Source of the DNA: Nitrospirota bacterium
Lineage (GTDB): Bacteria > Nitrospirota > Thermodesulfovibrionia > Thermodesulfovibrionales > JdFR-86
DNA length: 64,000 nucleotides
Direction: 5' to 3'
Assembly: GCA_963721805.1 (NCBI GenBank)
Contig: CAVRJY010000001.1
Location: forward strand, 672,001 to 736,000
The translations under genes were made by a program, and so were the position numbers. This document shows, one piece after another, positions 152 through 62,979 of the stretch (positions are counted from its first letter, which is position 1; the number at the start of each line of letters is the position of its first letter). Under the pieces are notes generated by a model that saw nothing but the letters and a program-made list of their open reading frames with translations, had not been told where the DNA came from and ran no database searches.

Positions 152-328
152 GCCGTTGACCTTGGGGGCGCGGGGGTCCAGCGGCTGTGCCGCGTCTAAC
201 CCCCGAAAGCGCGGCCAAATCGTCTTCAGACTAGGAATGACGAGCAGACCGACCGGAGGCGTATATGGACATACGTTGAGGATCGGGCTGCGAGACGTGA
301 CGCAGTATCAAGCGATTTGGAGCGCTTT
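152..328 (+). repeat. Long-hairpin interspersed repeat, copy 1
   Basis: GCCGTTGACC start; AAAGCGC..CCAAATCG / CGATTTGG..GCGCTTT outer stem; TCAGACTAGG and ACGCAGTATCA motifs; apical CGTAT-N6-ATACG. Confidence 0.95.
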
Positions 329-330
329 AA

Positions 331-897
331 TTAAACCCTCAGTTTTAATGAATAACCTTTTCTACTTGCGATCTCATCGAGGATCGCATGGAGGATCGAG
401 GATTTCCTTCGCACCTCGCACCTGTAGGCTTCCACCCTCGCCCTGGTCATCGCCTCGATCAGCTCGTCGACCGAAAGGACCGCGGCCGCGATGCAGTAAT
501 AAACCTTCGAGCGGCCCTCGTCAAAGCTGCGCAGCATCTCATTGAGCATCTGCTCCTTCGCCTGCTGATCTCTCTCGAATTTCTTGATGCCGATCTCATC
601 TATTAGGGCCAGGTCGGCTTCGAGCGTCTGGCAGCACCTGAACGTATCATGCTGTTTTGCTTTTTCTCGGTGCTTCTTCCATCTCTCACAGGCCCCGCTC
701 TCGTCGCAGTCCCAGCAAAACGCGATCCCCTTTTCCTTAACCGCACAGGTTATGAATGGGCATCCTATCGCCACGCGGGACTTGCTCTTGCACCCCTCGC
801 ACTTTTCTTTCCCTTCGGTATGATACCGGGGACAGAGCCTGCATGAAAAACCGCATATCCCTATCTCGGGGTATTTTATCTCAGTGGCTCTACGCAT
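331..897 (-). CDS. DUF3795-family Cys-rich metal-binding protein
   Basis: CGFSCRLCP, CEGCK, CPFITC, CWDC..C cysteine pattern; 188 aa; TGtTAAGAT -10 lies 5 nt upstream of the ATG. Confidence 0.75.
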   Translation of the reverse strand: MRRATEIKYPEIGICGFSCRLCPRYHTEGKEKCEGCKSKSRVAIGCPFITCAVKEKGIAFCWDCDESGACERWKKHREKAKQHDTFRCCQTLEADLALIDEIGIKKFERDQQAKEQMLNEMLRSFDEGRSKVYYCIAAAVLSVDELIEAMTRARVEAYRCEVRRKSSILHAILDEIASRKGYSLKLRV

Positions 898-950
898 CGG
901 ATATCTTAACAGATAGAAAACCAGTTTACGTACCGCGCATTCAAATCAAA

Positions 951-1121
951 GCCGTTGACCTTGGGGGCGCGGGGGGCGCCATTTTTACTTGCCCCCCGAA
1001 AGCGCGCCCAAATCGGCTTCAGACAAGGCAGGACGAGAAGACCGCCCGATGGTGTACTGAGACGTACATAGAGGGCGAGTCTTCGATGCCCAACGACGTA
1101 TCAAGCGATTTGGAGCGCTTT
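951..1121 (+). repeat. Long-hairpin interspersed repeat, copy 2
   Basis: Same termini and stems as copy 1; inner arm GAAGACCGCCC..GTAC-N6-GTAC..GGGCGAGTCTTC. Confidence 0.95.
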
Positions 1122-1156
1122 AAAGATAACGCCCGAAATAGTATAATTGCTCCACT

Positions 1157-3718
1157 ATGCCTGAGCAGAACTCAACCCCTTTGATGAAGCAGTACAATGA
1201 GATCAAGGAGCGCCACCGCGACGCTATCCTGCTGTTTAGGCTCGGGGATTTCTACGAGATGTTCGGCGACGATGCTAAGGTCGCATCTAAGGTCCTGCAG
1301 ATCGCGCTCACCTCGAGAGACAAAAACAAGGAGCACCCGGTGCCGATGTGCGGCATACCGTACTTCGCTGCCGAGGGCTACATAGCCAAGCTCATACACG
1401 CGGGCCACAAGGTCGCGGTATGCGAGCAGGTCGAGGACCCCAAGGACGCCAAGGGCATCGTCAGGCGCGAGGTCATCCGCGTCATCACGCCCGGCACCCA
1501 CACGCCCGAGTCGCCGAAGGAGAACAACTACGCGCTCGCTTTTTATCCGGCAGGGGAGGGCCACGGCATCGCCGCGGCGGACGTGTCGACTGGCGAGTTC
1601 ATCGTATACGAGACCTCACGCCCGCTTGAGGACGAGCTTGCGAGGCTCGCCCCGTCCGAGGTCCTGGTGATGGAGGGCCTCGGCGGCGACATCCACTACT
1701 CCGAGGCGCTCGATGGCTACCACATCTCACCGGTAAGCGACTGGAAGTTCGACTACCCGGACGCCTACCGCACGCTCTTGCAGTACTTCCGCGTCAGTTC
1801 GCTCGAGGGTTTCGGCTGCGAGGGGATGCGCGCCGCGATCTCCGCCGCCGGGGCGCTGCTTGGGTATCTGAGCGAGGCCCAGCGCGGCGCGCTCGGGTTT
1901 CGGAAGCTTACGCCGCTTAATCAGGCTGACTATATGTTCCTCGACTCCCAGACGCAGCGCAACCTCGAACTCCTGCGCACCTTAAAAGACGGCGGCCACG
2001 AGGGCAGCCTGCTCTGGGCGCTCGACGAGACGCTGACCCCGATGGGCGGCAGGCTTATGCGCAGCGCGGTGGTCAGGCCTCTGATCAATGCCGATCAGAT
2101 AAAGAGACGGCAGGGCGCTGTGAGCCAGATCATAGAGGACTACGAGCTCTCGGACGCGCTGAGGAAGGGTTTCCGCAACATACAGGACATCGAGCGGCTC
2201 GCGCAGCGCATCGCCTCCGGGGCGGCCAACGCGCGTGACCTCGTCGCGCTCAAGCTCTCGGTATCCTACCTTCCCGATATCGCGGCCGCACTCGATGCCG
2301 CGCCGGATCAGTTCCTTAAGGATCTCCGTAAGGGCATCCCGGATTTCACCTCCATGCGCGAGCTAGTCGGCAAGGCGATAGTCGACCACCCGCCGATACC
2401 GCTTCGGGAGGGCGGCATCATCCGCGAGGGCCATAACGCCGAACTCGACGAGCTCCGCTCGATCTCCGTAACCGCCAAGGACGTTATAGCGCGCATCGAG
2501 ACCGAGGAGAGGAAGGCCACCGGGATCAACTCGCTGAAGGTCGGGTTCAACCGGGTATTCGGCTATTACATCGAGGTCACGAAGCCGAACCTCCCGCAGG
2601 TGCCGGAGCGGTATATCAGAAAGCAGACGCTCGTAAGCGGCGAGCGGTTCATCACGCCGGAGCTCAAGGAATACGAGGAGAAGGTCCTCGGCGCGGAGGA
2701 GCGGATCAAGGCCATCGAATACAGGCTGTTTACCGAGGTGCTCGACAAGTGCCGGGCCTCGGTGCCCGCGCTGCTCGACGCGGCGGCCTCGGTGGCGCAG
2801 GCGGATTTCCTCGTATCGCTCGCCGTATCGGCCAAGCGGCATAATTATGTGATGCCCACGGTCGACGAGGGCGAGGCGATAGAGATACAAAACGGCCGCC
2901 ACCCCGTGCTCGAGCGCTTGTCATTGGGCGAGCGGTTCATCCCGAATGACACGCAGATGGACATGGAATCGGCGCGCGTGCTCGTGATAACCGGCCCGAA
3001 CATGGCCGGGAAGTCCACGTACATGAGGCAGGTCGCGCTCGCGGTCCTGATGGCCCAGATCGGCGGCGGAGTGCCTGCCGAGGCCGCGCGCATAGGCATC
3101 GTGGATCGCATATTCACGCGCATCGGGGCCTCCGATTTTCTTACCAAGGGCCAGAGCACCTTCATGGTCGAGATGATAGAGACCGCGAATATACTAAATA
3201 ACGCCACGGCGCGGAGCCTCGTCATACTCGACGAGGTAGGGCGCGGCACGAGCACCTTTGACGGGATCAGCATCGCGTGGGCCGCGGCCGAACACATAGC
3301 ATCCACTATAGGCGCGCGCACGCTCTTCGCCACCCACTATAACGAGCTTACGGAACTCGCGCATATAGTTGAAGGCGTGCGCAACCTCAACATAGCGGTG
3401 CGCGAGTGGGGCGAGGAGATCATATTCCTTAGGAAGATCGAGCCCGGCCCGGCGGACAAGAGCTACGGCATACAGGTGGCAAGGCTCGCCGGGCTCCCGG
3501 CCGAGGTGCTCACGGCCGCCAGGGCTGTGCTTGAACGTTTAGAGAAGCGCCAGCGCGGGGAGTACGCCTCAAAGAACATCCGCCAGCTCGACCTCTTCGG
3601 GCAGGAGGCCGACCCCATAGAGCAGGAGCTTGCGAAGCTCGACCTCACGGGGCTCTCGGGCGAGGACGCGCTTAGTAAACTCGCCAGACTTAAGGCCCTA
3701 TACGCCAAGGGCGCGTAG
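1157..3718 (+). CDS. mutS: DNA mismatch repair protein MutS
   Basis: TPLMKQY..RLGDFYEMF N-terminus, TGPNMAGKST Walker A, LDEVGRGTST, FATHY, SYGIQVA; 853 aa. Confidence 0.98.
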   Translation: MPEQNSTPLMKQYNEIKERHRDAILLFRLGDFYEMFGDDAKVASKVLQIALTSRDKNKEHPVPMCGIPYFAAEGYIAKLIHAGHKVAVCEQVEDPKDAKGIVRREVIRVITPGTHTPESPKENNYALAFYPAGEGHGIAAADVSTGEFIVYETSRPLEDELARLAPSEVLVMEGLGGDIHYSEALDGYHISPVSDWKFDYPDAYRTLLQYFRVSSLEGFGCEGMRAAISAAGALLGYLSEAQRGALGFRKLTPLNQADYMFLDSQTQRNLELLRTLKDGGHEGSLLWALDETLTPMGGRLMRSAVVRPLINADQIKRRQGAVSQIIEDYELSDALRKGFRNIQDIERLAQRIASGAANARDLVALKLSVSYLPDIAAALDAAPDQFLKDLRKGIPDFTSMRELVGKAIVDHPPIPLREGGIIREGHNAELDELRSISVTAKDVIARIETEERKATGINSLKVGFNRVFGYYIEVTKPNLPQVPERYIRKQTLVSGERFITPELKEYEEKVLGAEERIKAIEYRLFTEVLDKCRASVPALLDAAASVAQADFLVSLAVSAKRHNYVMPTVDEGEAIEIQNGRHPVLERLSLGERFIPNDTQMDMESARVLVITGPNMAGKSTYMRQVALAVLMAQIGGGVPAEAARIGIVDRIFTRIGASDFLTKGQSTFMVEMIETANILNNATARSLVILDEVGRGTSTFDGISIAWAAAEHIASTIGARTLFATHYNELTELAHIVEGVRNLNIAVREWGEEIIFLRKIEPGPADKSYGIQVARLAGLPAEVLTAARAVLERLEKRQRGEYASKNIRQLDLFGQEADPIEQELAKLDLTGLSGEDALSKLARLKALYAKGA

Positions 3719-5533: not shown

Positions 5534-8521
<2,988 letters not shown>

Positions 8522-13232: not shown

Positions 13233-14817
<1,585 letters not shown>

Positions 14818-14953
14818 ATGACTTCGGGTCTTCATGTCCCGACACATCCGGCGAAAACCAAGAAACACCGACTGTGATGCCTACTGCGTAGTTTTAATAG
14901 ATGTCTTATAGGGACGTCTTTTTGTTCTTTGAAAACAGAGGGAAGAAGAATAA

Positions 14954-18105
<3,152 letters not shown>

Positions 18106-18334
18106 ATTTTTCCACTCCCTCTGTTTTTATGGAACAAAAAGGCATCCATCTCTGACCGGTGCGGGGATGGGGGTTGAAAAAACTCCGTTTTCATGTATGA
18201 TGTAAGGTGTCCCCTGCTTCGGGCCGGATGCCTGAAGGGAAGGCGTGCCGAGGGGAGACGTGCGGCATGCCGGTTTTTGTTTGTGCGCCGGCCACTCCGG
18301 CAGCCCTGATCGCTAGGACGGAAACAACGCGGGC

Positions 18335-19774
18335 ATGAGAGAAAAAGACATCTTCGAAGAGATCATCGACATCGGCAAACGCCGTGGCGTGCTCACCTAT
18401 GACGAGATCAACGAGGCCCTTCCGGCCGAGTTCTTTTCCCCGGACGAGATGGAAGACCTCATGGAGCTCCTCCATGAGCTCGGCATCAAGGTCGTCGACG
18501 ACGACACCCTCGTCCCCGAGGAGGAGCCTGAGGAAGAGGAGGAGGTCACCGAGTACGAGAAGACCGAGGACCTCGTCCAGGCCTATTTCCACTCGATGGG
18601 CAACATCTCGATCCTGACCAAGGACGAGGAGACCCACCTCGCCAAGCAGCTCGAAGAGGGCCGCGAGATCATGAAGGGCATCCTCGGCAAGATGGCCATC
18701 TACGAGCACCCGGAGCCGACCGAGGTCATAGGGACCGAGGAGGGCGCCGAGGAGGCCGCAGCGGACGCCGACGAGGACAAGGACATCCTCGCGATCGCTT
18801 TCAGCTACCAGCGCCTCGAGGCGATCATGGCCCGCGTGGCCGAGCAGGACCGCAAGATCGAGCGCTTCGGCAATGTCAAGGCCCTCAGGAAGTCCGTCGC
18901 CGACAAAAAGAAGCTCGGCAAGAACGTCAAGAAGGCCGACGCCCTGCTGAAGGAAGTCCAGAAGGAATACAAGCGCGTCGAGCAGGAGACCGGCCTCAAG
19001 ATGGACCAGATCCGCGAGGACTGGGTCCGCCTGAGCAAGGTGCGCGAGATGATGGAGACCGCCAAAAACGAGCTCATCACCCGTAACCTGCGCCTCGTCG
19101 TCAACATCGCAAAAAACTACGTCGGCCGCGGCCTGCCACTATTGGACCTCATACAGGAAGGCAACATCGGCCTGATGAAGGCAGTGGACAAGTTCAAGTA
19201 CGAGAAGGGTTTCAAGTTCAGCACCTACGCGACGTGGTGGATCAGGCAGGCCATCACGCGCGCGCTTATCGACCAGACGAAGACCATCCGCGTGCCCGTG
19301 CACATGATGGAGTTCTATAACCGCGTTACCAAGGCCGCGCGCGAGCTCACGCACCAGCTCGGCAAGGAGCCGGACAACGAGGAGATCGCAAAGAAGCTCG
19401 CCGTGCCCTCAAAGAAGGTCGAGGAGGTCTTCCGCGCCATACAGGACCCGATCGCGCTTCAGACCCCGATAGGGGACGAGGACACCGAGCTTGAGGACTT
19501 CATCGGCGACAAGGTCAGCCCGTCTCCGTATTCGGACGCCGAGCGCATCGAGAGCTCCGAGCAGCTTCAGCGCGTGCTCCGCACCCTCTCGCCCAAGGAA
19601 GAGAAGGTCATCAAGATGCGCTTCGGCATCGGAGCCGACCGCGACCATACGCTCGAGGAGGTCGGCCGCTACCTCTCGATCACCCGCGAGCGCGTCCGTC
19701 AGATCGAAGCGAAGGCGCTTCGTAAATTGAAACACCCCTCGCGCCTCAAGGCCCTTCGCCTGCTGATGTCCTAG
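18335..19774 (+). CDS. RpoD-like group 1/2 sigma70 factor with region 1.1
   Basis: GKRRGVLTYDEINEALP (region 1.1), [52 protein letters not shown]. Confidence 0.95.
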   Translation: MREKDIFEEIIDIGKRRGVLTYDEINEALPAEFFSPDEMEDLMELLHELGIKVVDDDTLVPEEEPEEEEEVTEYEKTEDLVQAYFHSMGNISILTKDEETHLAKQLEEGREIMKGILGKMAIYEHPEPTEVIGTEEGAEEAAADADEDKDILAIAFSYQRLEAIMARVAEQDRKIERFGNVKALRKSVADKKKLGKNVKKADALLKEVQKEYKRVEQETGLKMDQIREDWVRLSKVREMMETAKNELITRNLRLVVNIAKNYVGRGLPLLDLIQEGNIGLMKAVDKFKYEKGFKFSTYATWWIRQAITRALIDQTKTIRVPVHMMEFYNRVTKAARELTHQLGKEPDNEEIAKKLAVPSKKVEEVFRAIQDPIALQTPIGDEDTELEDFIGDKVSPSPYSDAERIESSEQLQRVLRTLSPKEEKVIKMRFGIGADRDHTLEEVGRYLSITRERVRQIEAKALRKLKHPSRLKALRLLMS

Positions 19775-21501: not shown

Positions 21502-21567
21502 AGCCGATTATATCAAAGAGTACCTCGGGGCGCCAGCCGGCGATGGCGGGCCGCGAAGGGGCCGCGT

Positions 21568-22662
21568 TTAAAGCAGCCCGAGCCTGATCGCCTTCACCGC
21601 GGCCTCGGTGCGGTTTTGGGTGTTGAGTTTGGCAAACAGGCTCTGGATGTAGGTCTGGACGGTCCTTTCGGCGATGCCGAGCTCGAATGCAATCTCCTTG
21701 TCCTGCAGGCCCTGGGCCAGGCGCCTGATGACCTCGAGCTCGCGCCTGGTGAGGTGCGCCCTCGCATCGCCATCCTTTTTCCTTGAGTCGATCAGGGACA
21801 CCCAGCCGCTGCCCTTCACCGGCAGGTACTGGCCGCCGTGCGTCTCGTCGAACCTGTAGCATATCGCCATCCCGTATGGCGGCGCGTAGGCCTCGATCTC
21901 CTGAAATATAAGGCAGGGTTTGGTGTCGTCATGCCGCGGGACGGTCTTAAGCCGACGGATCTGCTCCATGAGCGGCATCGGGAGCGAGGCCGGCACGCTG
22001 CCGTCGATTCCTTTTATCACCCTCCTGGCGGTCTCGTTGATGAACGTGATCTTACCCTCGTCGTCGGAGGTGATGATCCCGAACGGGAATGCGTCGAAGC
22101 AAGACACCGTGAAGAAGTCCGTGCCGAGCAGCCAGCGATAACGGAGGAAGCTATAAAAGACATAGGGTGAGATCCTGCTAATCGCCAGCATTTCCTGATC
22201 GGATGACCTCGGCGCATCGGCTCTTATCCCGCCGACTATCCCTGTCTGGACCCCTGACTCGCTGCAGAATACGGTTTCGAAGCCGCACAGGAAACCAAAC
22301 GGCTTGTATAACTCATCGTAGTCCACGGGGTAGTTTTTCTCGACGTCGTTGAAGATCTTTGTCGCATACCCGAACTTTTGGGCGGCCGCGACGTGGTCTT
22401 TGTATAAGGGCATGTTCGCGTGGTCTTTATTGACGTATCCGGTCAGAAACTCAGGGGGGAAGCCGCAGAAAATGCCCCTGAAGTCGTATCCCGTGCCCGA
22501 GACCCCCGTGACGCAGATCGGGGTGAATGCGATATCCTGCTTGATCCGCTCGAAGATGGATTCGATGTAGGTCTCGCGGTCCAGAAGGTATATGGAGCGC
22601 TCCTTGATGTCGCGCACCAGCTGCGCGAGCAGGTCTGTCCGGCTGGAGGCCCTGGGTCCCAT
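21568..22662 (-). CDS. LuxR-family regulator (GAF/autoinducer-like + PAS-like + HTH), paralog 1
   Basis: LTRRELEVIRRLAQGLQDKEIAFELGIAERTVQTYIQSLFAKL HTH; PFGIITSDDEGKITFINETA PAS-like segment. Confidence 0.9.
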   Translation of the reverse strand: MGPRASSRTDLLAQLVRDIKERSIYLLDRETYIESIFERIKQDIAFTPICVTGVSGTGYDFRGIFCGFPPEFLTGYVNKDHANMPLYKDHVAAAQKFGYATKIFNDVEKNYPVDYDELYKPFGFLCGFETVFCSESGVQTGIVGGIRADAPRSSDQEMLAISRISPYVFYSFLRYRWLLGTDFFTVSCFDAFPFGIITSDDEGKITFINETARRVIKGIDGSVPASLPMPLMEQIRRLKTVPRHDDTKPCLIFQEIEAYAPPYGMAICYRFDETHGGQYLPVKGSGWVSLIDSRKKDGDARAHLTRRELEVIRRLAQGLQDKEIAFELGIAERTVQTYIQSLFAKLNTQNRTEAAVKAIRLGLL

Positions 22663-22676
22663 CGCGCTCTCTTTCT

Positions 22677-23753
22677 TTAAAGCAGCCCGAGCTTGATCGC
22701 CTTCACGGCGGCCTCGGTGCGGTTGTGTGTCTCGAGCTTTGCAAACAGGCTCTGGATGTAGGTCTGGACGGTCTTCTCGGCGATGCCGAGCTCGAAGGCG
22801 ATCTCCTTATCCTGAAGCCCCCGGCCGATGAGGCGGATTACCTCGAGCTCGCGCTGAGAGATCAGGGCCTTCTGGGCCATGTCCTTTTTCCTTGAGTCGA
22901 TGAAAAACACCCAGCCGCTGCCCTTGACCGGCAAGTATCTTCCTCCGAAGTCCTCATCGAACCTGTAGCAGACCGTCACCCCGTACGGCGGGACGTACGC
23001 CTCGATCTCCTGGAATATCAGGCATGGCTCACTATAATGTTTAGGGACCTCATCCAATAGCCGCATCTGCTCCATAAAGCGTGCTGGAAGAACGCTGTGG
23101 GCCTGCCTGCCCGTGCTCCCTATAAGCTGCCTGGCGGCCTCGTTTAGGTATGTGATGTTCCCCGCACGATCCGAGGTGACGATCCCTAACGGGAACTCGT
23201 CATAGCAGACCACTGTGAAGAAGTCCGCCTCTACTAGCCAGCGGTAGCGCTGAAAGGCATAAAATATAAATGGCGCAATCTGGCGCACGGCTGACATTTC
23301 ATCTTCCGCAAAGACAACCTCAGCGCTCTTTAATGCGCCCCAGACACCGATAACATTGCCGGACTGATCGCAGAATACCGTCTCCATGCCGCACTGAAAC
23401 CCGAATGGTTTAAAACGCTCATCATAGTCCTCGGGATAGTTATGGGCCATGTCATCAGAAAACTTTGTCGCGTACCCGAGTTTTTTTGCGGCAGCAATAT
23501 GGTCACGGTAGAAATCCAGTTTTGCATGGTTTTTGTTCAGGTAGATTGCGAGGTACTTCGGGGGATAACCGCACATTATGCCCTTGAGGTCATACCCGGT
23601 GCCGGAGACCCCGGTGACGGTGATCGGGACAAACGCTATGTCCTTCTTGATGCGGTCGAAGATGGATTCGATATATGTCTCACGGTCAAGGAGATAAACG
23701 GCGCGCTCCTTGATATCGGCTACAAGCTTGTTAAGCCCGCTGAGTTTGGCCAT
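22677..23753 (-). CDS. LuxR-family regulator, paralog 2
   Basis: Collinear with paralog 1 over the full length, near-identical HTH; start set at ATG 23753 by alignment. Confidence 0.9.
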   Translation of the reverse strand: MAKLSGLNKLVADIKERAVYLLDRETYIESIFDRIKKDIAFVPITVTGVSGTGYDLKGIMCGYPPKYLAIYLNKNHAKLDFYRDHIAAAKKLGYATKFSDDMAHNYPEDYDERFKPFGFQCGMETVFCDQSGNVIGVWGALKSAEVVFAEDEMSAVRQIAPFIFYAFQRYRWLVEADFFTVVCYDEFPLGIVTSDRAGNITYLNEAARQLIGSTGRQAHSVLPARFMEQMRLLDEVPKHYSEPCLIFQEIEAYVPPYGVTVCYRFDEDFGGRYLPVKGSGWVFFIDSRKKDMAQKALISQRELEVIRLIGRGLQDKEIAFELGIAEKTVQTYIQSLFAKLETHNRTEAAVKAIKLGLL

Positions 23754-25469: not shown

Positions 25470-26900
25470 GTGAAGAAGCTAATCAGCATTGACGAACTCA
25501 GGGTCGGGATGTACGTCTGCGGGCTCGGACGCGCATGGATCGAGACGCCGTTTTTCAGCCACAGTTTTCTCGTGTCAGGCCGCGAGACCATAGAGAAGCT
25601 CCGCAGCGCGAAGATCGGGCAGCTGTATATCGACACCGAGCGCGGCATCGACGACCCGCCCGCCCCCGGGCCTTCGGCCGCAGCCCAGCCGGATGACGGG
25701 GAGTTCATGGCCGTAAGCCTCTCGTCGCTCAAGCCCGGCACGGTGCTGCCGTTTGACGTGTTCCGCAACTCAGGCTCGGGCAGGGAGCTCACCATCGAGA
25801 AGGGCTCGGAGTACTCGGCCCCGCTGAGCAAGGCCGTCAAGTTCGGCGGCTCGCTAACGGCCTTCATCAGGAAGGATGACGAGGAGGCCTACCTGCTTTA
25901 CAGCGACTCGCTGCGCCACGGGCCGGGCGGGATTATTTTCTATACCCAGAAGGAGTTCAGCCGCTATAACCGGGACAAGGAGATCCATTATCCTATCTCG
26001 CGCGAGCTGCTCTCGGCCGGGACCAGGGTGGATTTCTCGATACTCGTAAAACGGGGGTTTTTCTACGCCCCGCTCCTGATGGTCGAGCGCGGCTCAGAGG
26101 CTGCGGTCACCGAGCGGGACCTCCAGGCCCACGGTGAGTTCGTCATCGTCCAGGAGGACATCCAGAGGTATCAGGACTATATAGCGCGCCGCCTCCGCCA
26201 AAGCGGCAACGACCAAAAGATGGCCGCGGCCGTCACCCGCGAGACCGCGAAGGTGCGCGTGCGCGAGATCCTCGGCTCGTACCGAGACGGCAGGCTGGTG
26301 AAAAAGTGCGTCGAGGACACGGTGCAGGAAATGCTGGCGCTCATCACGAGCAGCCAGGGCGCCTTCGCCGGACTGCTGAGCCTCAACGCGCAGGACACCT
26401 ATACGTACGTGCATTCGGTCAACGTCGCGGCCCTCTCGATCAGCCTCGGAAACGCGATCGGACTCGGGCAGGGCGAGCTCTTCGAGCTGGGCATGGGCTG
26501 CATCCTGCACGACATCGGCAAGGTCATGGTGCCGGTAGAGATACTGAACAAGCCAAGCCGCCTGACCATACAAGAGTATAAGGAGATAAAAAAGCACGTG
26601 CTGTACGGGCGTGACATCCTAAACGGATACGGCGACATCCCGGAGGGCGCTTACATCCCGGTCTTGCAGCACCACGAAAAGCTCTCAGGCAAGGGCTACC
26701 CGTTCAGGCTCAGCGGCGCGGACCTCCACGACATGGGGAGGATCGCCTCGATGGTCGATACCTATGACGCCATCACGACCAGCAGGCCGTACAGAAAGGC
26801 GCTCTCTGCGTACTACGCCCTCAAGGTCATCTCCAGCGAGAACGAAAACTACGCCCCCGCACTCTATTCCGAATTCGTAAAACTCCTCGGCCGCGCCTAG
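25470..26900 (+). CDS. HD-GYP phosphodiesterase with DUF3391-like N-terminus
   Basis: IDELRVGMYV N-terminus; HSVNV, LHDIGK, HHEKLSGKGYP; GGAGG SD before GTG. Confidence 0.92.
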   Translation: MKKLISIDELRVGMYVCGLGRAWIETPFFSHSFLVSGRETIEKLRSAKIGQLYIDTERGIDDPPAPGPSAAAQPDDGEFMAVSLSSLKPGTVLPFDVFRNSGSGRELTIEKGSEYSAPLSKAVKFGGSLTAFIRKDDEEAYLLYSDSLRHGPGGIIFYTQKEFSRYNRDKEIHYPISRELLSAGTRVDFSILVKRGFFYAPLLMVERGSEAAVTERDLQAHGEFVIVQEDIQRYQDYIARRLRQSGNDQKMAAAVTRETAKVRVREILGSYRDGRLVKKCVEDTVQEMLALITSSQGAFAGLLSLNAQDTYTYVHSVNVAALSISLGNAIGLGQGELFELGMGCILHDIGKVMVPVEILNKPSRLTIQEYKEIKKHVLYGRDILNGYGDIPEGAYIPVLQHHEKLSGKGYPFRLSGADLHDMGRIASMVDTYDAITTSRPYRKALSAYYALKVISSENENYAPALYSEFVKLLGRA

Positions 26901-26975
26901 GGGGCCGACTGGCCCCTCTCCCTATTCGCGTCGCTCACTTATTCGCGCAAAGCGCTCATCTCATATCATATCAAT

Positions 26976-27148
26976 GACTTTGACCTCGGGGGGACCGGGG
27001 GGCTTCCGTTGGCCTCCGCGCCCCCGGAGGCGCGCCAAATCGTTTTCAGACTAGGCAGGGCAAGAAGACCGCCCGATGGTGTACTTGGGCGTACATAGAG
27101 GGCGAGTCTTTGAAGCCCAACGACGTATCAAGCGATTTGGAGCGCTTT
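26976..27148 (+). repeat. Long-hairpin interspersed repeat, copy 3
   Basis: GACTTTGACC start variant; CCAAATCG..TCAGACTAGG..GTAC-N6-GTAC..GTATCAAGCGATTTGGAGCGCTTT. Confidence 0.95.
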
Positions 27149-27185
27149 GAAAAGGACGTGGTTGCTGTCGAGGAATTCCCTTGTT

Positions 27186-28724
27186 TTAGTTGCTATCCAG
27201 GAAGTCCTTGAGCCAGCGACTTCTTGAGGGATGTTTTAATTTCTTGAGCGCCTTCACCTCGATCTGCCTGATGCGCTCCCGCGTAACCTCAAACTCCTGC
27301 CCTATCTCCTCCAGCGTCAGCGGCGAGTCGTCGCCAATCCCGAACCGGCGGCGCAGGACCATCGCCTCTTTGTCGTTAAGCGAGTTCAATAGCTTCTGGA
27401 CCTTGTTGCAGAGGTCCTCGTTGATCGCCTCCTGAAGGGGCGAGGCGTGCGACTTGTCCTCGATGAAATCCCCGAGGCTGCTGTCCTCGTCCTCGCCTAC
27501 GGGCGTCTCGAGCGATATGGGCTCCCGCGTGATCTTCTGGATGCCCTTGACCTTCTCCACTGGCAGGTGCAGGCGGGCCGCGATCTGCTCGGGCGTGGGC
27601 TCCGCGCCGAGCTCCTGGAATATCTCGCGCGAGATGCGTATGATGCGGTTTATCGTCTCGACCATGTGCACCGGGATGCGGATCGTGCGCGACTGGTCCG
27701 CCAGCGCGCGCGTGATGGACTGCCTGATCCACCAGGTGGCGTAGGTCGAAAACTTATACCCGCGCGCGTACTCGAACTTCTCGACCGCGCGCATCAGCCC
27801 GATGTTGCCCTCCTGTATGAGGTCCGACAGGCTCAGGCCCTTGCCCATGTGGCGCTTGGCTATGCTGATGACGAGCCGCAGGTTGGCCTCGATCAGCTCG
27901 CGCTTGGCGTCCTGCAGGTTGAACTCCTCGGTCTCGATCGCGCCGAGGGCGTCCCTCAGCTCCGATGGGGCGAGGTCCAGCGATGCGCACATCTCACCCA
28001 GAAGGCGGCGGCACTCGATGTACCGGGCCGCGGCCGCGCGAGTCTCGGCCGACTTGATCCCGGCCGGTACGGACTTGAGCGTACCGGGCTTGATGCGGGC
28101 CGACACGAGCCGCCTGGTCAGGCCCTTGATGTCGGCCTCGGTGTCCAGGGCCGCGATGATCTCTTTCTTGAGGTCCTCGGAGAAGCTCATCACGACCTCT
28201 TCTTTGAGGCTCAGCGCCTTGATGCCCTCAAGGAGCGCGGCCTTGGCCGCATCCACGGACTTGGTCGAAGGGCTTTTGGCGCGCGAGGCGGCGAGCTTCT
28301 TTGCGGCCTTCTGGTAGGCCTCCATGAGCTTGCCTGCGCGGACCGTATCTTTATATAGCTTGCCGCGCTCCTCGGTCATGTCCTCGTCTGAGGTCTCGTC
28401 GACGCCGATGACGACATCGCCGATCGGGGCCTCGCCGCGCTCGACGCGCTCGCCTAATGCGAGGAGCTTCTTGAGCGTCAGCGGGCGCAGGAAGACCACG
28501 CAGGTCAGTTCCTTGCGGCTCTTTTCGATCTTGCGCGCGATCCTGACCTCGCCCTCGCGCGTAAGCAGAGGGCGGTGGGCCATCTCCCTCAGGTAGACCT
28601 TTACCGGCTCGTACTCGCCCTCGTAGGGCAGGGGTACCGCGACCTCTTCCTCCTCGGCAGGGGCCTCGGGGTCTTCGATCGCGTCGGAGTCGTATGTCTC
28701 TTGCGGTTCGTCAAACCTTTTCAT
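27186..28724 (-). CDS. rpoD: RNA polymerase sigma factor RpoD (dnaG-linked)
   Basis: [55 protein letters not shown]; overlaps the dnaG stop. Confidence 0.93.
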
Positions 28725-44448: not shown

Positions 44449-44530
44449 AAAAAAACTCCCGCCCTCGCAATCCCGAGAGTAGGAGTCATCAGTCCGGCTT
44501 CGGACGGTTAAAGGCGAACTCCATCGCCGT
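44449..44530 (-). promoter_or_regulatory. Fluoride (crcB-motif) riboswitch with intrinsic terminator
   Basis: Minus strand reads GGCGATGGAGTTCGCC-TTTAACC-GTCCGAAGCCGGAC-TGATGACTCCTAC, then CTCCTACTCTCG..CGAGGGCGGGAG-T7; TGcTAATGT -10 at 44537-44545. Confidence 0.95.
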
Positions 44531-44557
44531 GTATAAACATTAGCACAAGGATTTTAT

Positions 44558-49479: not shown

Positions 49480-50334
49480 ATGGTCAAGTTCACCGAGCAC
49501 GTGCCGTTTGTCGATATCGCTTACAGCTATGAGGTCGAGAAGGTCCTCTACAGGGGCAAGAGCAAGTTTCAGGACATCATGGTATTTACGAACCCGCAGT
49601 TCGGCAAGATGCTGATCCTCGACGGCGCGGTGCAGATCACCGAGCGCGACGAGTTTTTCTACCACGAGATGATTACCCACCCGCTGATGCACGCCCACCC
49701 GAACCCGAAGCGCGTCGTGGTCATAGGCGGCGGCGACGGCGGCACGGTGCGCGAGGTCCTAAAGCACAAATCGGTCGAGAAGGTCTACTTCGTCGAGATC
49801 GACCCTGAGGTCATACGCGTATCGAGGGAGTTCTTCCCGACCGTGGCAGGAAGCGTAGGCGATCCGCGCGTCGAGATCAAGAACATGGACGGGGCGGAAT
49901 TTATCAAGTCGCTCAACAACGAGATCGACGTCGTGATCGTGGACTCCACCGACCCGATCGGGTTTGCGCGCAGCCTGTTCAGCGAGCAGTTCCTCCGCAC
50001 CCTGCATCGTGCGCTCACGCCTGAGGGGATGTACGTCACGCAGTCCGAGAGCATGCTGATGCACGCCGATATCGTCAGGGAGATACAGGAGACGATAAAG
50101 AAGGTCTTTCCGTTGACGGACCTCTATTCCACCTGCATTGCGACCTATCCGGGCAACTGGTGGACGTTCTCGTGCGGATCGAAGTCTCACGACATGCGCA
50201 CCATGCGCAGACCGTTTGAGGTCGAGACGAAATACTATGACGATGAAATACACGCGCACTCGTTCATGCCGAAGAGGCTTTACGCACGGCTTATGGTCGG
50301 GTGGCATCCGCTGGTAGTTTTCAAAGCGCGCTAA
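49480..50334 (+). CDS. speE: Spermidine synthase (aminopropyltransferase)
   Basis: LDGAVQ..DEFFYHEM, IGGGDGG, VDSTDP; GGAGG SD; the C-terminal tail may be frameshifted. Confidence 0.93.
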   Translation: MVKFTEHVPFVDIAYSYEVEKVLYRGKSKFQDIMVFTNPQFGKMLILDGAVQITERDEFFYHEMITHPLMHAHPNPKRVVVIGGGDGGTVREVLKHKSVEKVYFVEIDPEVIRVSREFFPTVAGSVGDPRVEIKNMDGAEFIKSLNNEIDVVIVDSTDPIGFARSLFSEQFLRTLHRALTPEGMYVTQSESMLMHADIVREIQETIKKVFPLTDLYSTCIATYPGNWWTFSCGSKSHDMRTMRRPFEVETKYYDDEIHAHSFMPKRLYARLMVGWHPLVVFKAR

Positions 50335-50355
50335 ATACGCGTGATACGTCGTCAG
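50323..50355 (-). repeat. Long-hairpin repeat, partial copy 7 (outer end only)
   Basis: AAAGCGCGCTAAATACGCGTGATACGTCGTCAG matches the end of copy 5, AAAGACGCGCTAAATACGCGTGATACTGCGTCAG. Confidence 0.85.
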
Positions 50356-50429
50356 GGGGCAGCGCCCCCTCGCTCCTATTCGCGGCGCTAACGCACCACT
50401 CACTTAAAAGGGGCCATCCGGCCCCTTTC

Positions 50430-51163
50430 TTATTGTGGAGATTGTGCTGGTTTGTTAATTGGCTCAAAGCGAATTATTTTTGCTTCGGGGTAGAGCTTAC
50501 TTAAAGCCTCGTGAAGTTTGTCGCGGGTTGTTTCCAAAAAAACTACTGTATCGTCAATATGTTCGATTGCATCATCAGTCATTCTGGATAACTTTGTTGC
50601 CACTCTTTCACCAAGAGCGTTCACATATTGTTGTTTTGAGTATTTAACCCCCTGCGTCATTCCAGCATTCTCGATCAGCGGTTGAGCAATCTCTTCATGA
50701 AGTTTGGAGCGTTCATTGAGTATTTTCGCAGCAGTCTGATATTTACTTTCTGCTATTAATAATTGACCGAGATAGTCACGGTATTCAGTTTCCAGCAGAA
50801 AGCTCAGACTGCTAACATCAAACATCCATCGTTCATAATCCATAGGGGAAATGAAGGTTGCATACCAATGAATCTGAGATCATTCGACCTGATCGAATCA
50901 ATAAATTGTGTTTGGATTAGCCTGAGGCCATTCCACTGTTGCATAAGAATAAACATGGCACGATTACCAAAGGCTACTTCATCGGATTGTTTTCTTCTTA
51001 AACGTTCTTGCTCTTCGGAACGTTTCCGTAGTAAGTGTGCTCGCTCCTCGAGTACGAAGGCATACCAAGCACCGCCAAACGCGGCTCCAAATGCGGCTAG
51101 TGCTGTGATTATCGCGGATAAGATTGTCTCAGAAATCATGCTTTGCACAATGCAACACCTCAT
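50430..51163 (-). CDS. AT-rich membrane-anchored hypothetical protein split by a frameshift near 50845
   Basis: ORFs 50804..51163 (N-terminal TM segment) and 50430..50843 join if one base of the G4 run is removed (..MQPSFP-MDYERW..). Confidence 0.6.
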
Positions 51164-51626: not shown

Positions 51627-52029
51627 AAACCTGACTATTATCCTACATCAAAGCGGCCTGTTTGTGTAAGACCTCTTTAACTAACCATAGTTAATCAAAA
51701 ACGCACGGATTTTAATTTTTCCTATCAATTTCGGTTTATATATAAACCGTAGGTTATCGCTTTTTTTGTTTCGTTGTGCTTCAATATCGTATGAGTTTGA
51801 TATGGTCATATTTGATGGGCGGGGCAGGGGAGGCGGGAGAGAGTGCCACATGTTCGGATAAGGCCGCAAAAACCGCACTTTTTATCCGAACATCCGAACA
51901 GGGACGATCTCGAAAAAATGATGTTTTCCGGGGAGTTAGCGTTGCTCTTGCCTCAAACATCCGAACACATAAAATAAAACGTGCGCGCGCGGAATGCGTA
52001 ACTATACCTAAGCGCGGACATCAGAACAT

Positions 52030-52201
52030 GCCGTTGACCTTGTGGGGCGCGGGGGGCGACCTTCTTCCGTGCCCCCCGAAAGCGCGCCCAAATCGTCTTC
52101 AGACAAGGCAGGGCAAGAAGACCGCCCGATGGTGTACTGTGACGTACATAGAGGGCGAGTCTTTGAAGCCCAACGAAGTATCAAGCGATTTGGCGCGCTT
52201 T
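52030..52201 (+). repeat. Long-hairpin interspersed repeat, copy 4
   Basis: Closely matches copy 2 from GCCGTTGACC to GCGCTTT. Confidence 0.95.
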
Positions 52202-52233
52202 CACTACCTGCCAGTATGGTAAAATCCTAAGTT

Positions 52234-59737: not shown

Positions 59738-60573
59738 AGGACGCCCGCATACTGCGCGAAGAGATCGAGAACATCGACACGCTCCCGACGATCCCAAGCG
59801 TGCTGCAGCGCCTCCTGCGCGTCATCGAAAACCCCAAGGTCTCCCTTAACGAGATCAGCAATACGATACTCAGCGACCCGGTACTGACCTCGCGCGTGCT
59901 GAAGCTCGTAAACTCGCCTATATACGGCTTCCCCGGCAGGATCAGCTCGCTCACTCAGGCCCTGATACTGCTCGGCCTCAACGTGGTCAGGGGCATGCTG
60001 CTCGGCGTATCGGTGTTCGAGGCCATGGAGATGACTATGACCGGGCTTTGGAAGCACTCGCTCGGCTGCGCCGTGACGGCGCGCCTCGTGGCGAAGCGCG
60101 TCGGGGCCTCCGAGCCCGAGGAGATCGCGGTCGCGGCCCTGCTGCACGACATCGGCAAGGTCGTGCTCAAGCTCAAGTATCCCGAGGACTACTCTGCGGT
60201 GATCAAGAGGACCGAGGAGTCCGGGATGTACATAGTCGAGGTCGAGAAGGAGATATTCCATATCACGCACGCCGACGCCGGCTCGTGGATAGCGCAGAAG
60301 TGGAACTTCCCCAAGCACCTCGTCGAGGCCATAGCATATCACCACAAGCCTCAGATCGCCCGAAACGTCCCGATGCACGCCGCCATAGTGCACTTCTCCG
60401 ACGCGCTCGTGCGGGCCAAGGGCTTCGGGTTTTCCGGCGACCCCTACGTGCCGCAGGTCCACCCGGCGGCCTGGAAGCTCCTGAACCTCTCCGACGGGGA
60501 GGTCATGGACCTGCTTCGGGAGCTCGACGACGCCCTGAGCGTGGCCGAAGACACGATCCTGAGCGATGACTAA
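59734..60573 (+). CDS. HDOD-domain protein
   Basis: LPTIP, DPVLTSRVLKLVNS, LLHDIGK, WNFP, YHH. Confidence 0.92.
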   Translation: MKDARILREEIENIDTLPTIPSVLQRLLRVIENPKVSLNEISNTILSDPVLTSRVLKLVNSPIYGFPGRISSLTQALILLGLNVVRGMLLGVSVFEAMEMTMTGLWKHSLGCAVTARLVAKRVGASEPEEIAVAALLHDIGKVVLKLKYPEDYSAVIKRTEESGMYIVEVEKEIFHITHADAGSWIAQKWNFPKHLVEAIAYHHKPQIARNVPMHAAIVHFSDALVRAKGFGFSGDPYVPQVHPAAWKLLNLSDGEVMDLLRELDDALSVAEDTILSDD

Positions 60574-61492
60574 CGACCAGCCCTCGATAACCGTTATCTC
60601 AAGGGACGAGGGGTTCAAGGACATGGTCTCCGGCCTGCTCGGAGACAGGTACGTGCTCGTCAACTTCCCTGACATCCAGACCTCGATAGACTATATCTAC
60701 AACTCGCTGCCGAGCATGGTCCTGATCCACCTGCTCAAGGACGACCGCCTCTCTCCCTCGATACTCAAGGCCTTCAAGAGCGACCCGATATTCTCTCAGC
60801 TCCCGGTGCTCGGCGTGCTGGAGGACGGCTACGTAATCCCCTCATGGGACTTCCTGCTGGTGGACGATTTCATCCGGGGCATCGACGTGGTGGCGGACCT
60901 CTCGCTGCGCGCGGACCTCTGCGTAAAGCGCTCCGAGCGCATGGTGGACGTAAGCCCCCTGACCAAACTTCCGGGCAATATCGCGATATTAAAGCAGGTC
61001 CAGAGCAGGCTCTCGCGCGGCGAGAAGTTCGCGCTCGCCTACTGCGACCTGGACCACTTCAAGCCCTTCAACGACCGCTACGGCTTCGGCCGCGGAGATG
61101 AGGTCATAAAGATGCTCGGCCGCCTGATCCTCAACAGCGTGTTAGAGGCCCAGCCCGTAGGTAGCTTCGTCGGCCACATCGGAGGAGACGACTTCATCTT
61201 CATCACCGAGACCGCGGTCGCGGACCAGACCGCGCACAGCATCACGGAGTTCTTCGACAACATCATCCCGACCTTCTATGACCAGGCGGACAACGAGGCC
61301 GGCTGCATCGCCTCGGTCGACCGCGAGGGCAAGCAGCGCCAGTTCCCGATCATGAGCCTCTCGATAGGCATCGCGCACAACCTGAGCCGGAGCTTCATAC
61401 ACTTCGGGGAGATGGCCGAGGCGGCGTCGGAGATGAAGAAGTATGCTAAGAACCACGAAGGCAGCTTCGTGGTGATGGACAGACGCAGGTAG
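60566..61492 (+). CDS. Diguanylate cyclase (degenerate REC + GGDEF)
   Basis: PLTKLPGN, DLDHFKPFNDRYG..GD, HIGGDDF. Confidence 0.9.
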   Translation: MTNDQPSITVISRDEGFKDMVSGLLGDRYVLVNFPDIQTSIDYIYNSLPSMVLIHLLKDDRLSPSILKAFKSDPIFSQLPVLGVLEDGYVIPSWDFLLVDDFIRGIDVVADLSLRADLCVKRSERMVDVSPLTKLPGNIAILKQVQSRLSRGEKFALAYCDLDHFKPFNDRYGFGRGDEVIKMLGRLILNSVLEAQPVGSFVGHIGGDDFIFITETAVADQTAHSITEFFDNIIPTFYDQADNEAGCIASVDREGKQRQFPIMSLSIGIAHNLSRSFIHFGEMAEAASEMKKYAKNHEGSFVVMDRRR

Positions 61493-61511
61493 GGTTCTGT
61501 CGCTTCGCTGG

Positions 61512-61673
61512 AAAGACGCGCTAAATACGCGTGATACTGCGTCAGTGCTTCAAAGACACGCCCTCGGAGTACGTCTCAGTACACCGTCGGGCGGTCTTCT
61601 CGCCCTTCCTTGTCTGACGCGATTTATCGCGCTTTGGTGATACGCGCAGGGTCAAGCGCGAGCGGTCAACGGC
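61512..61673 (-). repeat. Long-hairpin interspersed repeat, copy 5 (inverted)
   Basis: Reverse complement reads GCCGTTGACC..AAAGCGCGATAAAT..TCAGACAAGG..GAAGACCGCCC..GTAC-N6-GTAC..ACGCAGTATCA..CTTT. Confidence 0.93.
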
Positions 61674-61700
61674 ATTGGAAAAACTTTATGGTTATAAGGG

Positions 61701-62705
61701 TTAGTTTTTGGGGACAAACGAATACACGACGCCACTATTTGGCAATAACCATTCATTATACTGCATTGAAAAGAAACCTTCACGATGATCCTCAATAACC
61801 TTTTCTGGATGAGAGACCATCGGCTGAAACCTTAATTTCATTTCTTTAGGATATGATATTGTCATATAAAAAGTTTTTGTGGGATGTGCCATTGACCAAT
61901 TTGAAAACTGGCCTGTTTCCATTTTATAGACTGATTTTAATTCCACATACAATCCATTTTCGCTAAAATTACTCAAGGGGAAAATTAGTCCCTTTTGTTC
62001 AATTTCACTGCGCGGAACTTGCTTCTCAGTGCCATTGCATTTAACAACAAATTCATCATCTTTCTTATTCATTGACAATACGGGGTTGTTTTTTACCTTC
62101 ATTTCAACGCTTATAATATCTAAGAACTCTCCTGGATCTGGCTTCCACTTTATAGTATCCTGAATTTTTCCGCCAACCATTTTACAGGCATATGTAAGTC
62201 TATCGCTAATTAAAATACCTGGCGGTTCATCTGACTCTTCCACTACAATCTCGCACTTAACGTTATCTCTATATGGTTCGCTAATATACTTACTTAAGTT
62301 ATCCTGAAAATAATTCAAAAAACTTCCTTCCTTATCTATATCTGAGGTATGAAAATATGCTTTCAAGGTCTTAATCTGAAGATTTGAAAGGGTTTCTTGA
62401 TCCATAGAATTTAAATATTCTTGTTCCAAAACTACATTTTTCAATCTTTCCTCAAAATAATGCTGCCAATCAGGTAATTGCAAAAAGAAAGAAAATATGC
62501 CAGATGTGAAAATCGTGAAACCAAGCAGCTCAAAAAAATTATATATCAGCTTAGATATATCCGATGCTTTTTCAAAATCCGCCGGTTTATTATAAAGAGT
62601 TATTATCGCGATTAATAATCCCATTGATACCAAAAGAGTCGCGGACAAAACACTTAGCTTTCTCAGAATGTGTAAAATCTTCTTTTCTTTCTTTCCAGTT
62701 ATCAC
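61701..62705 (-). CDS. AT-rich hypothetical protein with 2 N-terminal TM segments and a beta-rich C-terminal domain
   Basis: 334-aa ORF, clearly AT-rich relative to flanks; two hydrophobic segments in the first ~75 aa; start codon uncertain. Confidence 0.8.
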   Translation of the reverse strand: MITGKKEKKILHILRKLSVLSATLLVSMGLLIAIITLYNKPADFEKASDISKLIYNFFELLGFTIFTSGIFSFFLQLPDWQHYFEERLKNVVLEQEYLNSMDQETLSNLQIKTLKAYFHTSDIDKEGSFLNYFQDNLSKYISEPYRDNVKCEIVVEESDEPPGILISDRLTYACKMVGGKIQDTIKWKPDPGEFLDIISVEMKVKNNPVLSMNKKDDEFVVKCNGTEKQVPRSEIEQKGLIFPLSNFSENGLYVELKSVYKMETGQFSNWSMAHPTKTFYMTISYPKEMKLRFQPMVSHPEKVIEDHREGFFSMQYNEWLLPNSGVVYSFVPKN

Positions 62706-62818
62706 GAAGAGTTCCGCCTAACAGTGATTTTACGTTGCTGTTATCATAAGTGAACATGCACATTAAATGCAATAAATATTGCAGAAAAAAAAGAACATTA
62801 GCGGCACTTGTGATCAAT

Positions 62819-62979
62819 GCCGTTGACCGCTCGCGCGATTAGCACACAGCACCACCAAAGCGCGATAAATTAGGCTCAGACAAGGAACGGCGAGGACCCC
62901 AACCGGAGGCGTACTGTGTCGTACGTTGAGGATTGGGGCCGCAGCCGTGACGCAGTATCAGGCAATTTAGCGCGGCTTT
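62819..62979 (+). repeat. Long-hairpin interspersed repeat, copy 6
   Basis: GCCGTTGACC..AAAGCGCGATAAAT..TCAGACAAGG..CGTAC-N6-GTACG..ACGCAGTATCA..GCTTT. Confidence 0.93.

Follow-up and report, generated by a model that had tools for sequence, protein, structure and literature searches.

Strand-specific long-hairpin repeats at gene ends and low-GC borders of a Nitrospirota genome, with a core that recurs across bacterial phyla

Results

Repeat copies within the window

A 64-kb stretch of DNA from a Nitrospirota bacterium (contig C1, 672001-736000; "the window" denotes this whole stretch) contains six full copies and one partial copy of a long-hairpin repeat, each full copy consisting of a head, a short variable segment and one long hairpin that ends in a tail. 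The genome assembly comprises 2.78 Mb in 9 contigs, at 60% GC and 94% completeness. The seven loci had been proposed earlier from the letters of the window (the original prediction), and all of them were recovered, the full copies by a covariance model of the family in this genome (R1) and the partial copy by nhmmer. A second covariance model (R2, 107 positions) describes the cross-phylum core of the hairpin. The copies, and the DNA enclosed by the last two, are as follows.

140-338, plus strand: full copy 1 (head, small GC hairpin, long hairpin); R1 160.1 bits, R2 92.1 bits, fold z -5.9; cross-phylum core at 214-321.
939-1131, plus strand: full copy 2; R1 160.3 bits, R2 75.2 bits, sequence inspected; core at 1007-1114.
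26964-27158, plus strand: full copy 3; R1 142.9 bits, R2 67.6 bits, sequence inspected; core at 27034-27141.
50323-50361, minus strand: partial copy of 39 nt, 3' arm of the long hairpin and tail only; nhmmer, model positions 139-176, E 5e-4.
52018-52211, plus strand: full copy 5; R1 154.6 bits, R2 71.7 bits, fold z -8.1; core at 52087-52194.
61503-61685, minus strand: full copy 6, left member of a head-inward pair; R1 168.7 bits, sequence inspected.
61686-62806, no strand assigned: cargo between the heads of copies 6 and 7; GC 0.34, one minus-strand open reading frame (ORF) of 334 aa.
62807-62988, plus strand: full copy 7, right member of the pair; R1 151.6 bits, sequence inspected.

The six full copies scored 143-169 bits with R1 (E 1e-28 to 1e-33 in the covariance search), and an independent repeat detection in the window recovered the same family as two direct and five inverted repeat entries. 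The head GCCGTTGACC, the variable segment behind it and the AAAGCGC/GCGCTTT closure of the long hairpin, as first described, were all readable in the window copies, and the motifs TCAGAC(A/T)AGG and ACG..GTATCA and the apex GTAC-N6-GTAC (GTAT/ATAC in copy 1) were present as they had been reported. The head of copy 3 is degenerate (GACTTTGACC). The loci first proposed were right and their extent was too short, since conservation in the genome copies starts some 11 nt upstream of the head and continues past the tail for some 8 nt, which are A-rich. At the gathering score, no Rfam 15 family matched the hairpin repeats of the window.

Copy 2 is located between a small minus-strand ORF and the start of a mutS-like gene. 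A converging gene has its stop about 40 nt from the tail of copy 3, and a converging minus-strand gene has its stop 25 nt from the tail of copy 7; the tail of copy 6 is found 20 nt past the TAG of the upstream plus-strand gene. The 334-aa ORF of the islet between copies 6 and 7 (61704-62705, minus strand) had no Pfam, NCBIfam or PADLOC match. We compared the pair at 61.5-63.0 kb with relatives for an empty site; the flanking genes were on different contigs there and no empty site could be read.

Number and anatomy of the repeats in the genome

A hidden Markov model built from the six window copies gave 246 genome hits at E<1 and 225 at E<1e-5. Near-full copies (150-210 nt) numbered 173, or about 1.2% of the genome; they were found on all large contigs and were densest in the first half of contig C1 and on contig C5. 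[quoted passage not shown] The copies are old and diverged, with a mean identity of about 75%, and alignment of the genome copies revealed no conserved promoter inside the element. The head GCCGTTGACC is more than 93% conserved and stands at the cargo border. The arms of the long hairpin are inverted repeats (AAAGCGCG..CAAATCG and CGATTTG..CGCGCTTT), and in this genome the head module is outside that palindrome. In 121 of 172 copies the junction at the tail has the form T-N-A. Because it is mirrored at both tails of a pair, a duplication is a less likely explanation than that it belongs to the element or reflects a target preference.

Fold, covariation and strand

The long rod hairpin measures 125 nt. 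For 49 diverse copies RNAalifold predicted 32 pairs, 15 of them with compensatory double changes, in agreement with the compensatory change claimed by the original prediction; when 142 distinct copies were aligned to R1, 94.9% of the cells were paired and 18 of the 32 pairs showed double changes. The within-genome covariation value was 0.235 versus 0.118 for shuffled alignments (0 of 500 reached the observed value), and sliding the pairing partners gave at most 0.046. The cross-phylum alignment of 54 matches gave 91.7% paired cells, double changes in 28 of 32 pairs, and a covariation of 0.386 versus 0.103 (again 0 of 500 shuffles; slid partners at most 0.065). MAFFT alone could not align the variable stems across phyla (6 pairs only), and a model-guided alignment was used for these figures. 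The within-genome figures are generous, yet the covariation of the stems is beyond doubt, given the sub-families that are visible to the eye. The long hairpins of the window were also more stable than their dinucleotide shuffles, with z of -3.9 to -8.1 in the plus orientation and 0 of 200 shuffles as good.

The core of about 107 nt is built, from the outside, of a variable outer stem and a CAGAC/GTAT(G/C) helix with a fixed G.A mismatch. Next come a 2x3 loop and a middle stem of variable sequence; beyond a CC-GG step, which has GGA/(U)GA loops, the core ends in an apical stem that is variable too. Three loop motifs are constant, with AAGG, GGAG and GAGGA conserved. The G.A mismatch in the CAGAC/GTAT helix was present in all of the 151 copies (of 173) that matched the pattern, and it recurred in every phylum inspected.

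Read from head to tail, the plus-strand hairpin was the more stable one in 123 of 142 copies, the mean advantage being 4.3 kcal/mol; the same held for 5 of the 6 full window copies. Wobble cells were distributed in the same sense: in the genome 256 cells were G-U on the plus strand versus 106 A-C cells (which are G-U on the other strand), and across phyla, in the model-fitted alignment, the ratio was 87 versus 20. It had been proposed that A-C mismatches on the top strand favour a bottom-strand fold; overall the opposite was found. The broader proposal, that selection acts on a fold with a strand preference, agreed with the covariation, the forward-hairpin stability and the one-sided G-U excess. 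It is thus shown that compensatory substitutions preserve the fold and that its wobble pairs gather on one strand. The fixed purine-purine mismatch and the one-sided wobble excess suggest that the maintained form is a folded single strand and not a double-stranded palindrome; the strand specificity argues that the single-stranded form matters.

Gene ends and low-GC DNA around the copies

The most telling features of the family were absent from the original prediction, namely about 200 copies in the genome, a tail placed against stop codons, and low-GC cargo on the head side. With genes called by a crude codon-usage ORF model, the gene beside the tail converged on the element in 115 of 164 classifiable copies. 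The converging stop codon was a median of 14 nt from the tail, 8 copies shared bases with the stop codon, and in 99 of 173 copies the tail was no more than 40 nt from it. Where a canonical terminator was present, the element came directly after its T-run. On the head side, the nearest called gene was a median of about 420 nt away.

GC content over 300 nt was 0.499 on the head side versus 0.598 on the tail side and was lower on the head side in 155 of 173 copies; values below 0.5 were found on the head side of 92 copies versus the tail side of 2. Neighbouring copies less than 6 kb apart formed 49 head-inward, 15 tail-inward and 22 direct pairs. The head-inward pairs bracket islets of 0.5-6 kb, with GC of 0.50 or lower in 41 of 49, and the DNA inside tail-inward pairs had a GC of 0.60-0.65 in 15 of 15. 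Two doublets were nearly empty (spacers of 13 nt and 68 nt). Viewed from the low-GC segments, 80 of 182 had a repeat within 400 nt versus 20-29 in shifted controls, and 28 had a repeat on both sides.

The cargo scan was of ORFs of at least 100 aa, and 9 cargo ORFs beyond the retrieved loci were left out. Pfam matches were obtained for 38 of 83 ORFs and 45 had none. The matches included HepT/MNT pairs, MazE/MazF-like and Gp49/HigB-like proteins, Abi_C, KAP NTPase, DUF5677, HNH nuclease, Ser/Thr kinase, SRAP, and transposases of the IS481, IS200 and IS30 families; PADLOC models matched 13 of 76 cargo ORFs (7 transposase ORFs excluded). In kind, the cargo is accessory and defence-like.

The two partners of a pair were no more alike than random copies (identity 0.747 versus 0.753; median partner rank 75 of 172), and a composite-transposon reading of the pairs was rejected for that reason. 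Each pair has the look of two gene-end elements that are old and independent of each other, foreign DNA having gathered between their heads.

The DNA just upstream of some heads is itself repeated, and one such module was delimited next to copy 5.

51700-52017 (or 51700-52029), plus strand: Module A, which is about 330 nt long and recurs upstream of heads; it has several ATCCGAAC boxes and a GC-alternating stretch and adjoins the head of copy 5.

Module A was located upstream of 24 of 173 heads by regular expression, and blastn returned 18 hits of at least 120 nt, 14 of which ended within 60 nt of a co-oriented head. The genome contains 161 ATCCGAAC boxes versus about 72 expected. A promoter-like site at 51948-51975 (plus strand) points into copy 5; it is a consensus match only, of a kind found 12 times versus 5.0 expected. 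Module A was also found upstream of varied divergent cargo genes, and it could be a shared regulatory or promoter cassette. A second small recurrent module (..CTATTCGCG-short hairpin-..TCATCTC) is present at 26900-26975 and 50355-50440 of the window, preceded by a GC hairpin with a T-run. About 27 heads have this CTATTCGCG module upstream of them, so that the intergenic DNA is a mosaic of several kinds of repeat.

Distribution across bacteria

Scanning of relatives with a covariance model, as had been suggested, gave, for R1, members of the family in 4 of 40 relatives, where the long hairpin and its loops were kept and the head was absent. An IUPAC pattern of the three loop motifs matched at least 92 stretches in a species-genome collection; the matches listed were from Nitrospirae, Beta-, Gamma- and "Delta"-proteobacteria, Desulfobacterales, Rokubacteria, Methylomirabilota, Verrucomicrobia, Bacteroidota, Bacillales and Clostridia. 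The original prediction had mentioned similar hairpins from Nitrospirota and Desulfobacterota, which the record titles of the pattern matches bore out, and the reach is far wider. After 13 pattern loci had been set aside by eye as chance non-hairpin matches, the same rod fold was found in 52 distinct pattern-derived sequences.

With R2, 53 of 151 genomes sampled from the phylum were positive; they belong to 28 of the 64 genera, and their distribution over its families was patchy (11 of 11 and 14 of 18 genomes in some, 0 of 27 in others). The hairpin core was present in at least 8 phyla besides Nitrospirota; the copies detected by R2 numbered 24 in a genome of Sporosarcina, 34 in one of Roseateles and 3 in a metagenome-assembled genome (MAG) of Gillisia, and R1 detected at least 61 copies in a proteobacterial MAG, in which 9 loci were inspected and no low-GC cargo was seen.

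A phage origin was considered and rejected: 30 pattern matches in viral contigs were mostly of the wrong spacing, and R2 gave them only 15.6-19.7 bits. Among these weak matches were two recurrent groups in unrelated viral contigs (5 and 7 loci), with a spacing unlike that of the bacterial family; they may be coding sequence.

At 15 cross-phylum loci, no Rfam 15 family matched the hairpin at E<=1. Four weak hits lay beside hairpins, and the T-box and TD-1 matches in the flanks were unrelated. The absence of an Rfam family at these loci and in the window is what the original prediction had led us to expect, and we did not find the family described in the main texts of the literature outside subscription journals. 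The element has no Rfam family and is uncatalogued, yet it is of a known kind, similar to MITEs and to repetitive extragenic palindromes (REPs). Its unusual traits are the strand-specific core conserved across phyla, the contact with stop codons and, in this genome, the border with foreign DNA.

Signs of transposition in Sporosarcina and Roseateles

In Sporosarcina the unit is about 200 nt long: a linker joins a short perfect hairpin to the core hairpin, and the inverted ends are imperfect. Locus-specific direct repeats of 21-35 nt flank 13 of the 20 distinct units, and 12 of these 13 direct repeats fold as hairpins followed by T-runs; because of the hairpin and the T-run behind it, we take the flanking repeats to be the terminator of the host gene. 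The duplication of whole host terminator hairpins around the copies shows that they were transposed. Imperfect terminal inverted repeats of 16-25 nt were found in Sporosarcina and Roseateles units, and near-identical copies exist within genomes.

The Roseateles hairpin has inverted ends of about 25 nt, with TCA on both sides in 5 of 13 copies scored by eye. This TCA is TGA on the other strand, where it is often the stop codon of a converging gene. The betaproteobacterial copies carry GTAG beside the stem. Six degenerate copies of the core are located in Roseateles 16S-23S spacers between two tRNA genes, on the rRNA sense strand.

Search for a mobilizing enzyme

We examined if the genome encodes an enzyme that could move the repeats, since the original prediction had called for a recombinase or HUH gene co-occurring with them; no tested family tracked the hairpin. 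The only genes matching PF01797 were six identical IS200-type Y1 genes, each within a 602-bp element (e.g., C1:42301-42660) that has its own matching left-end and right-end hairpins, and all six elements are in low-GC DNA near heads. The IS200-type Y1 transposase was rejected as the mobilizer, because its hairpins are its own and unrelated and it sits in the low-GC cargo; we treated it as a passenger. These Y1 genes scored 40.4 bits on the RAYT (REP-associated tyrosine transposase) model versus a cut-off of 80, so that no RAYT was found in this genome. TnpB was absent from the genome, and the best match to the integron integrase model TIGR02249 gave 68.8 bits versus a cut-off of 265.

Membership of the attC sites of integrons, and of the REPIN/RAYT systems, to both of which the repeats had been likened, was not supported by these results: there is no integron integrase above cut-off and the copies are dispersed, often as inverted pairs and not in direct arrays, and the sole Y1 genes are the six IS200-type copies with their own, different hairpins.

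One insertion sequence (IS), of the IS30 family, is associated with the repeats.

C1:387258-388346, C1:626592-627680, C1:649317-650405 and C1:759630-760718: four of the seven near-identical copies of a 1089-bp IS30-family IS (NF033563, 279 bits).
C2:367114-368202, C2:397062-398150 and C6:58610-59698: the remaining copies of the same IS (NF033563).

Five of the seven copies are in or beside repeats: in four cases the IS splits the long hairpin, each time at the same position, and in the fifth it is between two repeats. Given this recurrent insertion, four times at one position, the IS30-family IS appears to target the repeat. As the mobilizer the IS30 family was rejected: its terminal repeats in three genomes are unlike the arms of the hairpin, no hairpin was near its genes elsewhere, and of five carrier genomes IS30-family genes were found in only 2 and were missing from 3, including the Sporosarcina assembly. 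The split copies in this genome accordingly hold an IS with ends that differ from theirs.

Discussion

A mobile hairpin retained at gene ends

The reading to which we give about an even chance is that the repeat is a non-autonomous mobile hairpin of the MITE/REP kind, with a core of about 107 nt common to hairpin repeats of many phyla. Such elements would land in terminators or at gene ends, presumably because insertions are tolerated there. In the present genome the folding strand would be the one transcribed outward from the low-GC islets toward the core gene. By analogy with characterized repeats, retained copies would probably act in RNA, as structures at the 3' end by which a transcript that crosses from foreign into core DNA is stopped, processed or insulated; this role at the RNA level is inferred from the direction in which the fold strand would be transcribed. 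The space between head-inward copies would then become a tolerated landing zone for foreign genes and IS elements.

Several observations weigh against a mobile hairpin with a function in RNA. No U-run follows the hairpin, so that it does not qualify as an intrinsic terminator of the classical type. In 99 of 173 copies the fold strand runs antisense to the gene alongside, and for that reason a role in RNA needs transcription from the head side. Recent insertions in Sporosarcina showed no orientation preference, by crude ORF calls, and in the present genome too all of the gene contexts depend on the coarse calls described above. No target duplication was found in this genome for single copies (12 offsets), and around pairs 5 of 49 matched versus 6.2 expected. 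An element with the same ends and a transposase gene was found neither in this genome nor in Sporosarcina, where 30 left-end matches were inspected. The genes for IS30-family, RAYT, IS6-family, TnpB and integron-integrase proteins do not track the hairpin: RAYT was above cut-off in 1 of 5 carriers, with no hairpin nearby (in two carriers besides this genome no R2 hit came closer than 1.5 kb to the RAYT genes), and the IS6 family, a lead that came from a similarity of end sequences and was dropped, was in 0 of 5. Such gene absences are weak evidence, because draft assemblies often lose IS copies. As to the covariation, the genome and cross-phylum alignments were both fitted to the structure of the model, which favours pairing and G-U, and copies from the same genome are related, so that the cell counts overstate the number of independent events.

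Alternative explanations

The principal alternative, which we regard as unlikely, is a single-stranded DNA (ssDNA) site for recombination or transposition, in which an HUH, tyrosine or other enzyme would read the folded DNA strand. Head-inward pairs would then be ends or attachment sites that capture low-GC cassettes, like a dispersed integron-like or pdif-module-like system. The strand-specific fold, with its non-canonical pair and loops fixed across phyla, would suit such a site, as would the 49 inverted pairs around cassette-like cargo (toxin-antitoxin genes, defence candidates and unknowns), the near-empty doublets with 13-nt and 68-nt spacers, the strongly conserved head GCCGTTGACC at the cargo border, and the promoter-like module common to 24 heads. 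An enzyme is harder to name: integron integrase, RAYT and TnpB were not found in the genome, and the seven tyrosine recombinases that it encodes were listed only and were not linked to the repeats. The partners of a pair are as unlike as random copies, the relatives keep the hairpin without the head, and the proteobacterial genome with at least 61 copies had no low-GC cargo at its 9 inspected loci. If the adjacent genes are co-directional with replication, moreover, the fold strand would be the leading-strand template, and not the exposed lagging-strand template. A purely selfish MITE without a host role seems no likelier; its fold would be kept only for the needs of a transposase, and its contexts would be those where insertions survive. 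The signatures of transposition in Sporosarcina and Roseateles, the patchy distribution across families of the phylum, the near-identical copies within genomes and the targeting of the hairpin by the IS30-family IS are all consistent with it. A double-stranded transposase site, however, would predict neither that G-U exceeds A-C on one strand nor the orientation bias of old copies against the adjacent gene, and the finding that copies diverged to about 75% identity are still 95% paired suggests upkeep after insertion.

Least probable of all, in our judgement, is that the repeats are small RNA genes or cis-antisense RNAs to gene 3' ends, which would be transcribed from head-side promoters and might serve, for example, as protein sponges or antisense regulators through their GGA/GAGG-rich loops. 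The sequence features that suggest this are the bias toward one fold strand, the promoter-like site of Module A pointing into copy 5, the conserved loop motifs AAGG, GGAG and GAGGA, and the terminator hairpins that follow the Sporosarcina copies on the fold strand; set against them are the lack of a conserved promoter within the element, the occurrence of Module A at only 24 of 173 copies, and a promoter scan that gave consensus matches only (12 versus 5.0 expected). A wider proposal, which we hold to be rather improbable, is that of a pan-bacterial, structured and strand-specific element that marks gene ends. A conserved factor would recognize it, either in the form of ssDNA or in that of an antisense or border transcript, and the element would serve here as a boundary insulating, and perhaps recruiting, acquired DNA. 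If that were true, the repeats would form a dispersed system of gene capture and insulation rather than a mere selfish repeat.

Comparison with known repeats

The mobile hairpin that we favour resembles the Correia (NEMIS) elements of Neisseria and the ERIC (IRU) elements of enterobacteria, which are non-coding imperfect palindromes of 100-170 bp that form long RNA hairpins, and it shares with Correia and ERIC a number of intergenic copies in the tens to hundreds, often at the 3' ends of genes. It differs from them, as compared by description, in a core with loops conserved over at least 9 phyla rather than in one genus or family, in the fixed G.A mismatch and the one-strand G-U excess, in that a parent IS was not found, and in having no short fixed target duplication in this genome. 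Transcripts of such MITEs are processed, with Correia cut by RNase III and ERIC by RNase E, according to a passage of PMC10969869. The likeness to REPs, their mosaic elements (BIME) and REPINs consists of extragenic palindromes near stop codons, inverted doublets and, in the betaproteobacterial copies, GTAG by the stem. The present unit of 125-190 nt is unlike the 20-40 nt of REPs and REPINs, GTAG is confined to the betaproteobacterial copies, and this genome has no RAYT gene flanked by repeats. According to part of PMC12306157, translation in E. coli is affected by REPs that lie 15 nt or less from a stop codon.

With attC sites the repeat has in common a structured imperfect palindrome, strand choice, extrahelical or mismatched bases, and short accessory, cassette-like genes alongside. 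It is unlike them in that there is no IntI, the copies are dispersed over large contigs and paired in inverted (49) more often than in direct (22) order, the tail abuts core genes and not cassette genes, and the sequence is conserved across phyla. A GGTCAAC in the repeat differs from the attC RYYYAAC at one position and has no partner site. Nor does the repeat have the subterminal hairpins of the resident IS200, which distinguishes it, together with the absence of TnpB, from the ends of IS200/IS605 elements (PATE).

Closest to the Sporosarcina units in behaviour is IS1630, an IS30-family element of Mycoplasma fermentans that is said, from the title of Calcutt et al. 1999 in the reference list of PMC3317919, to duplicate terminators. 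Like IS1630, the Sporosarcina element duplicates a terminator hairpin on insertion, and by this analogy the element would work as IS1630 does. The duplications of IS1630 are of 19-26 bp, as given in a part of PMC2853133. In the Sporosarcina assembly and in two other carriers an IS30-family gene was not found, the terminal repeats of the IS30 family do not resemble the hairpin arms, and mobilization by an IS30-type enzyme gets no support.

If the mobile-hairpin reading holds, a single element occupies about 1.2% of this genome; about 100 gene ends are marked by it, and it lies at the border of nearly half of the low-GC islets. The core is conserved from Nitrospirota through to Firmicutes and Bacteroidota and its non-canonical pair is fixed, which implies one molecular partner in common. 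Identifying this partner would explain a recurrent feature of bacterial intergenic DNA and add a family to the catalogues of RNAs and mobile elements, and it could reveal the way in which small genomes wall off genes of foreign origin. The Sporosarcina copies provide a cultivable system with recent insertions.

Other features of the window

The Rfam scan of the window also located an rRNA operon at 13233-18106, in which the 16S-23S spacer is only about 145 nt and contains no tRNA, and a fluoride riboswitch at 44473-44537 on the minus strand. Two further repeats in the window are unrelated to the hairpin family, namely a tandem duplication at 21567-23658 (period about 1.1 kb, 69-87% identity) and a 260-nt inverted repeat, the two arms of which (19053-19312 and 27657-27916) are 8.3 kb apart and 73% identical.

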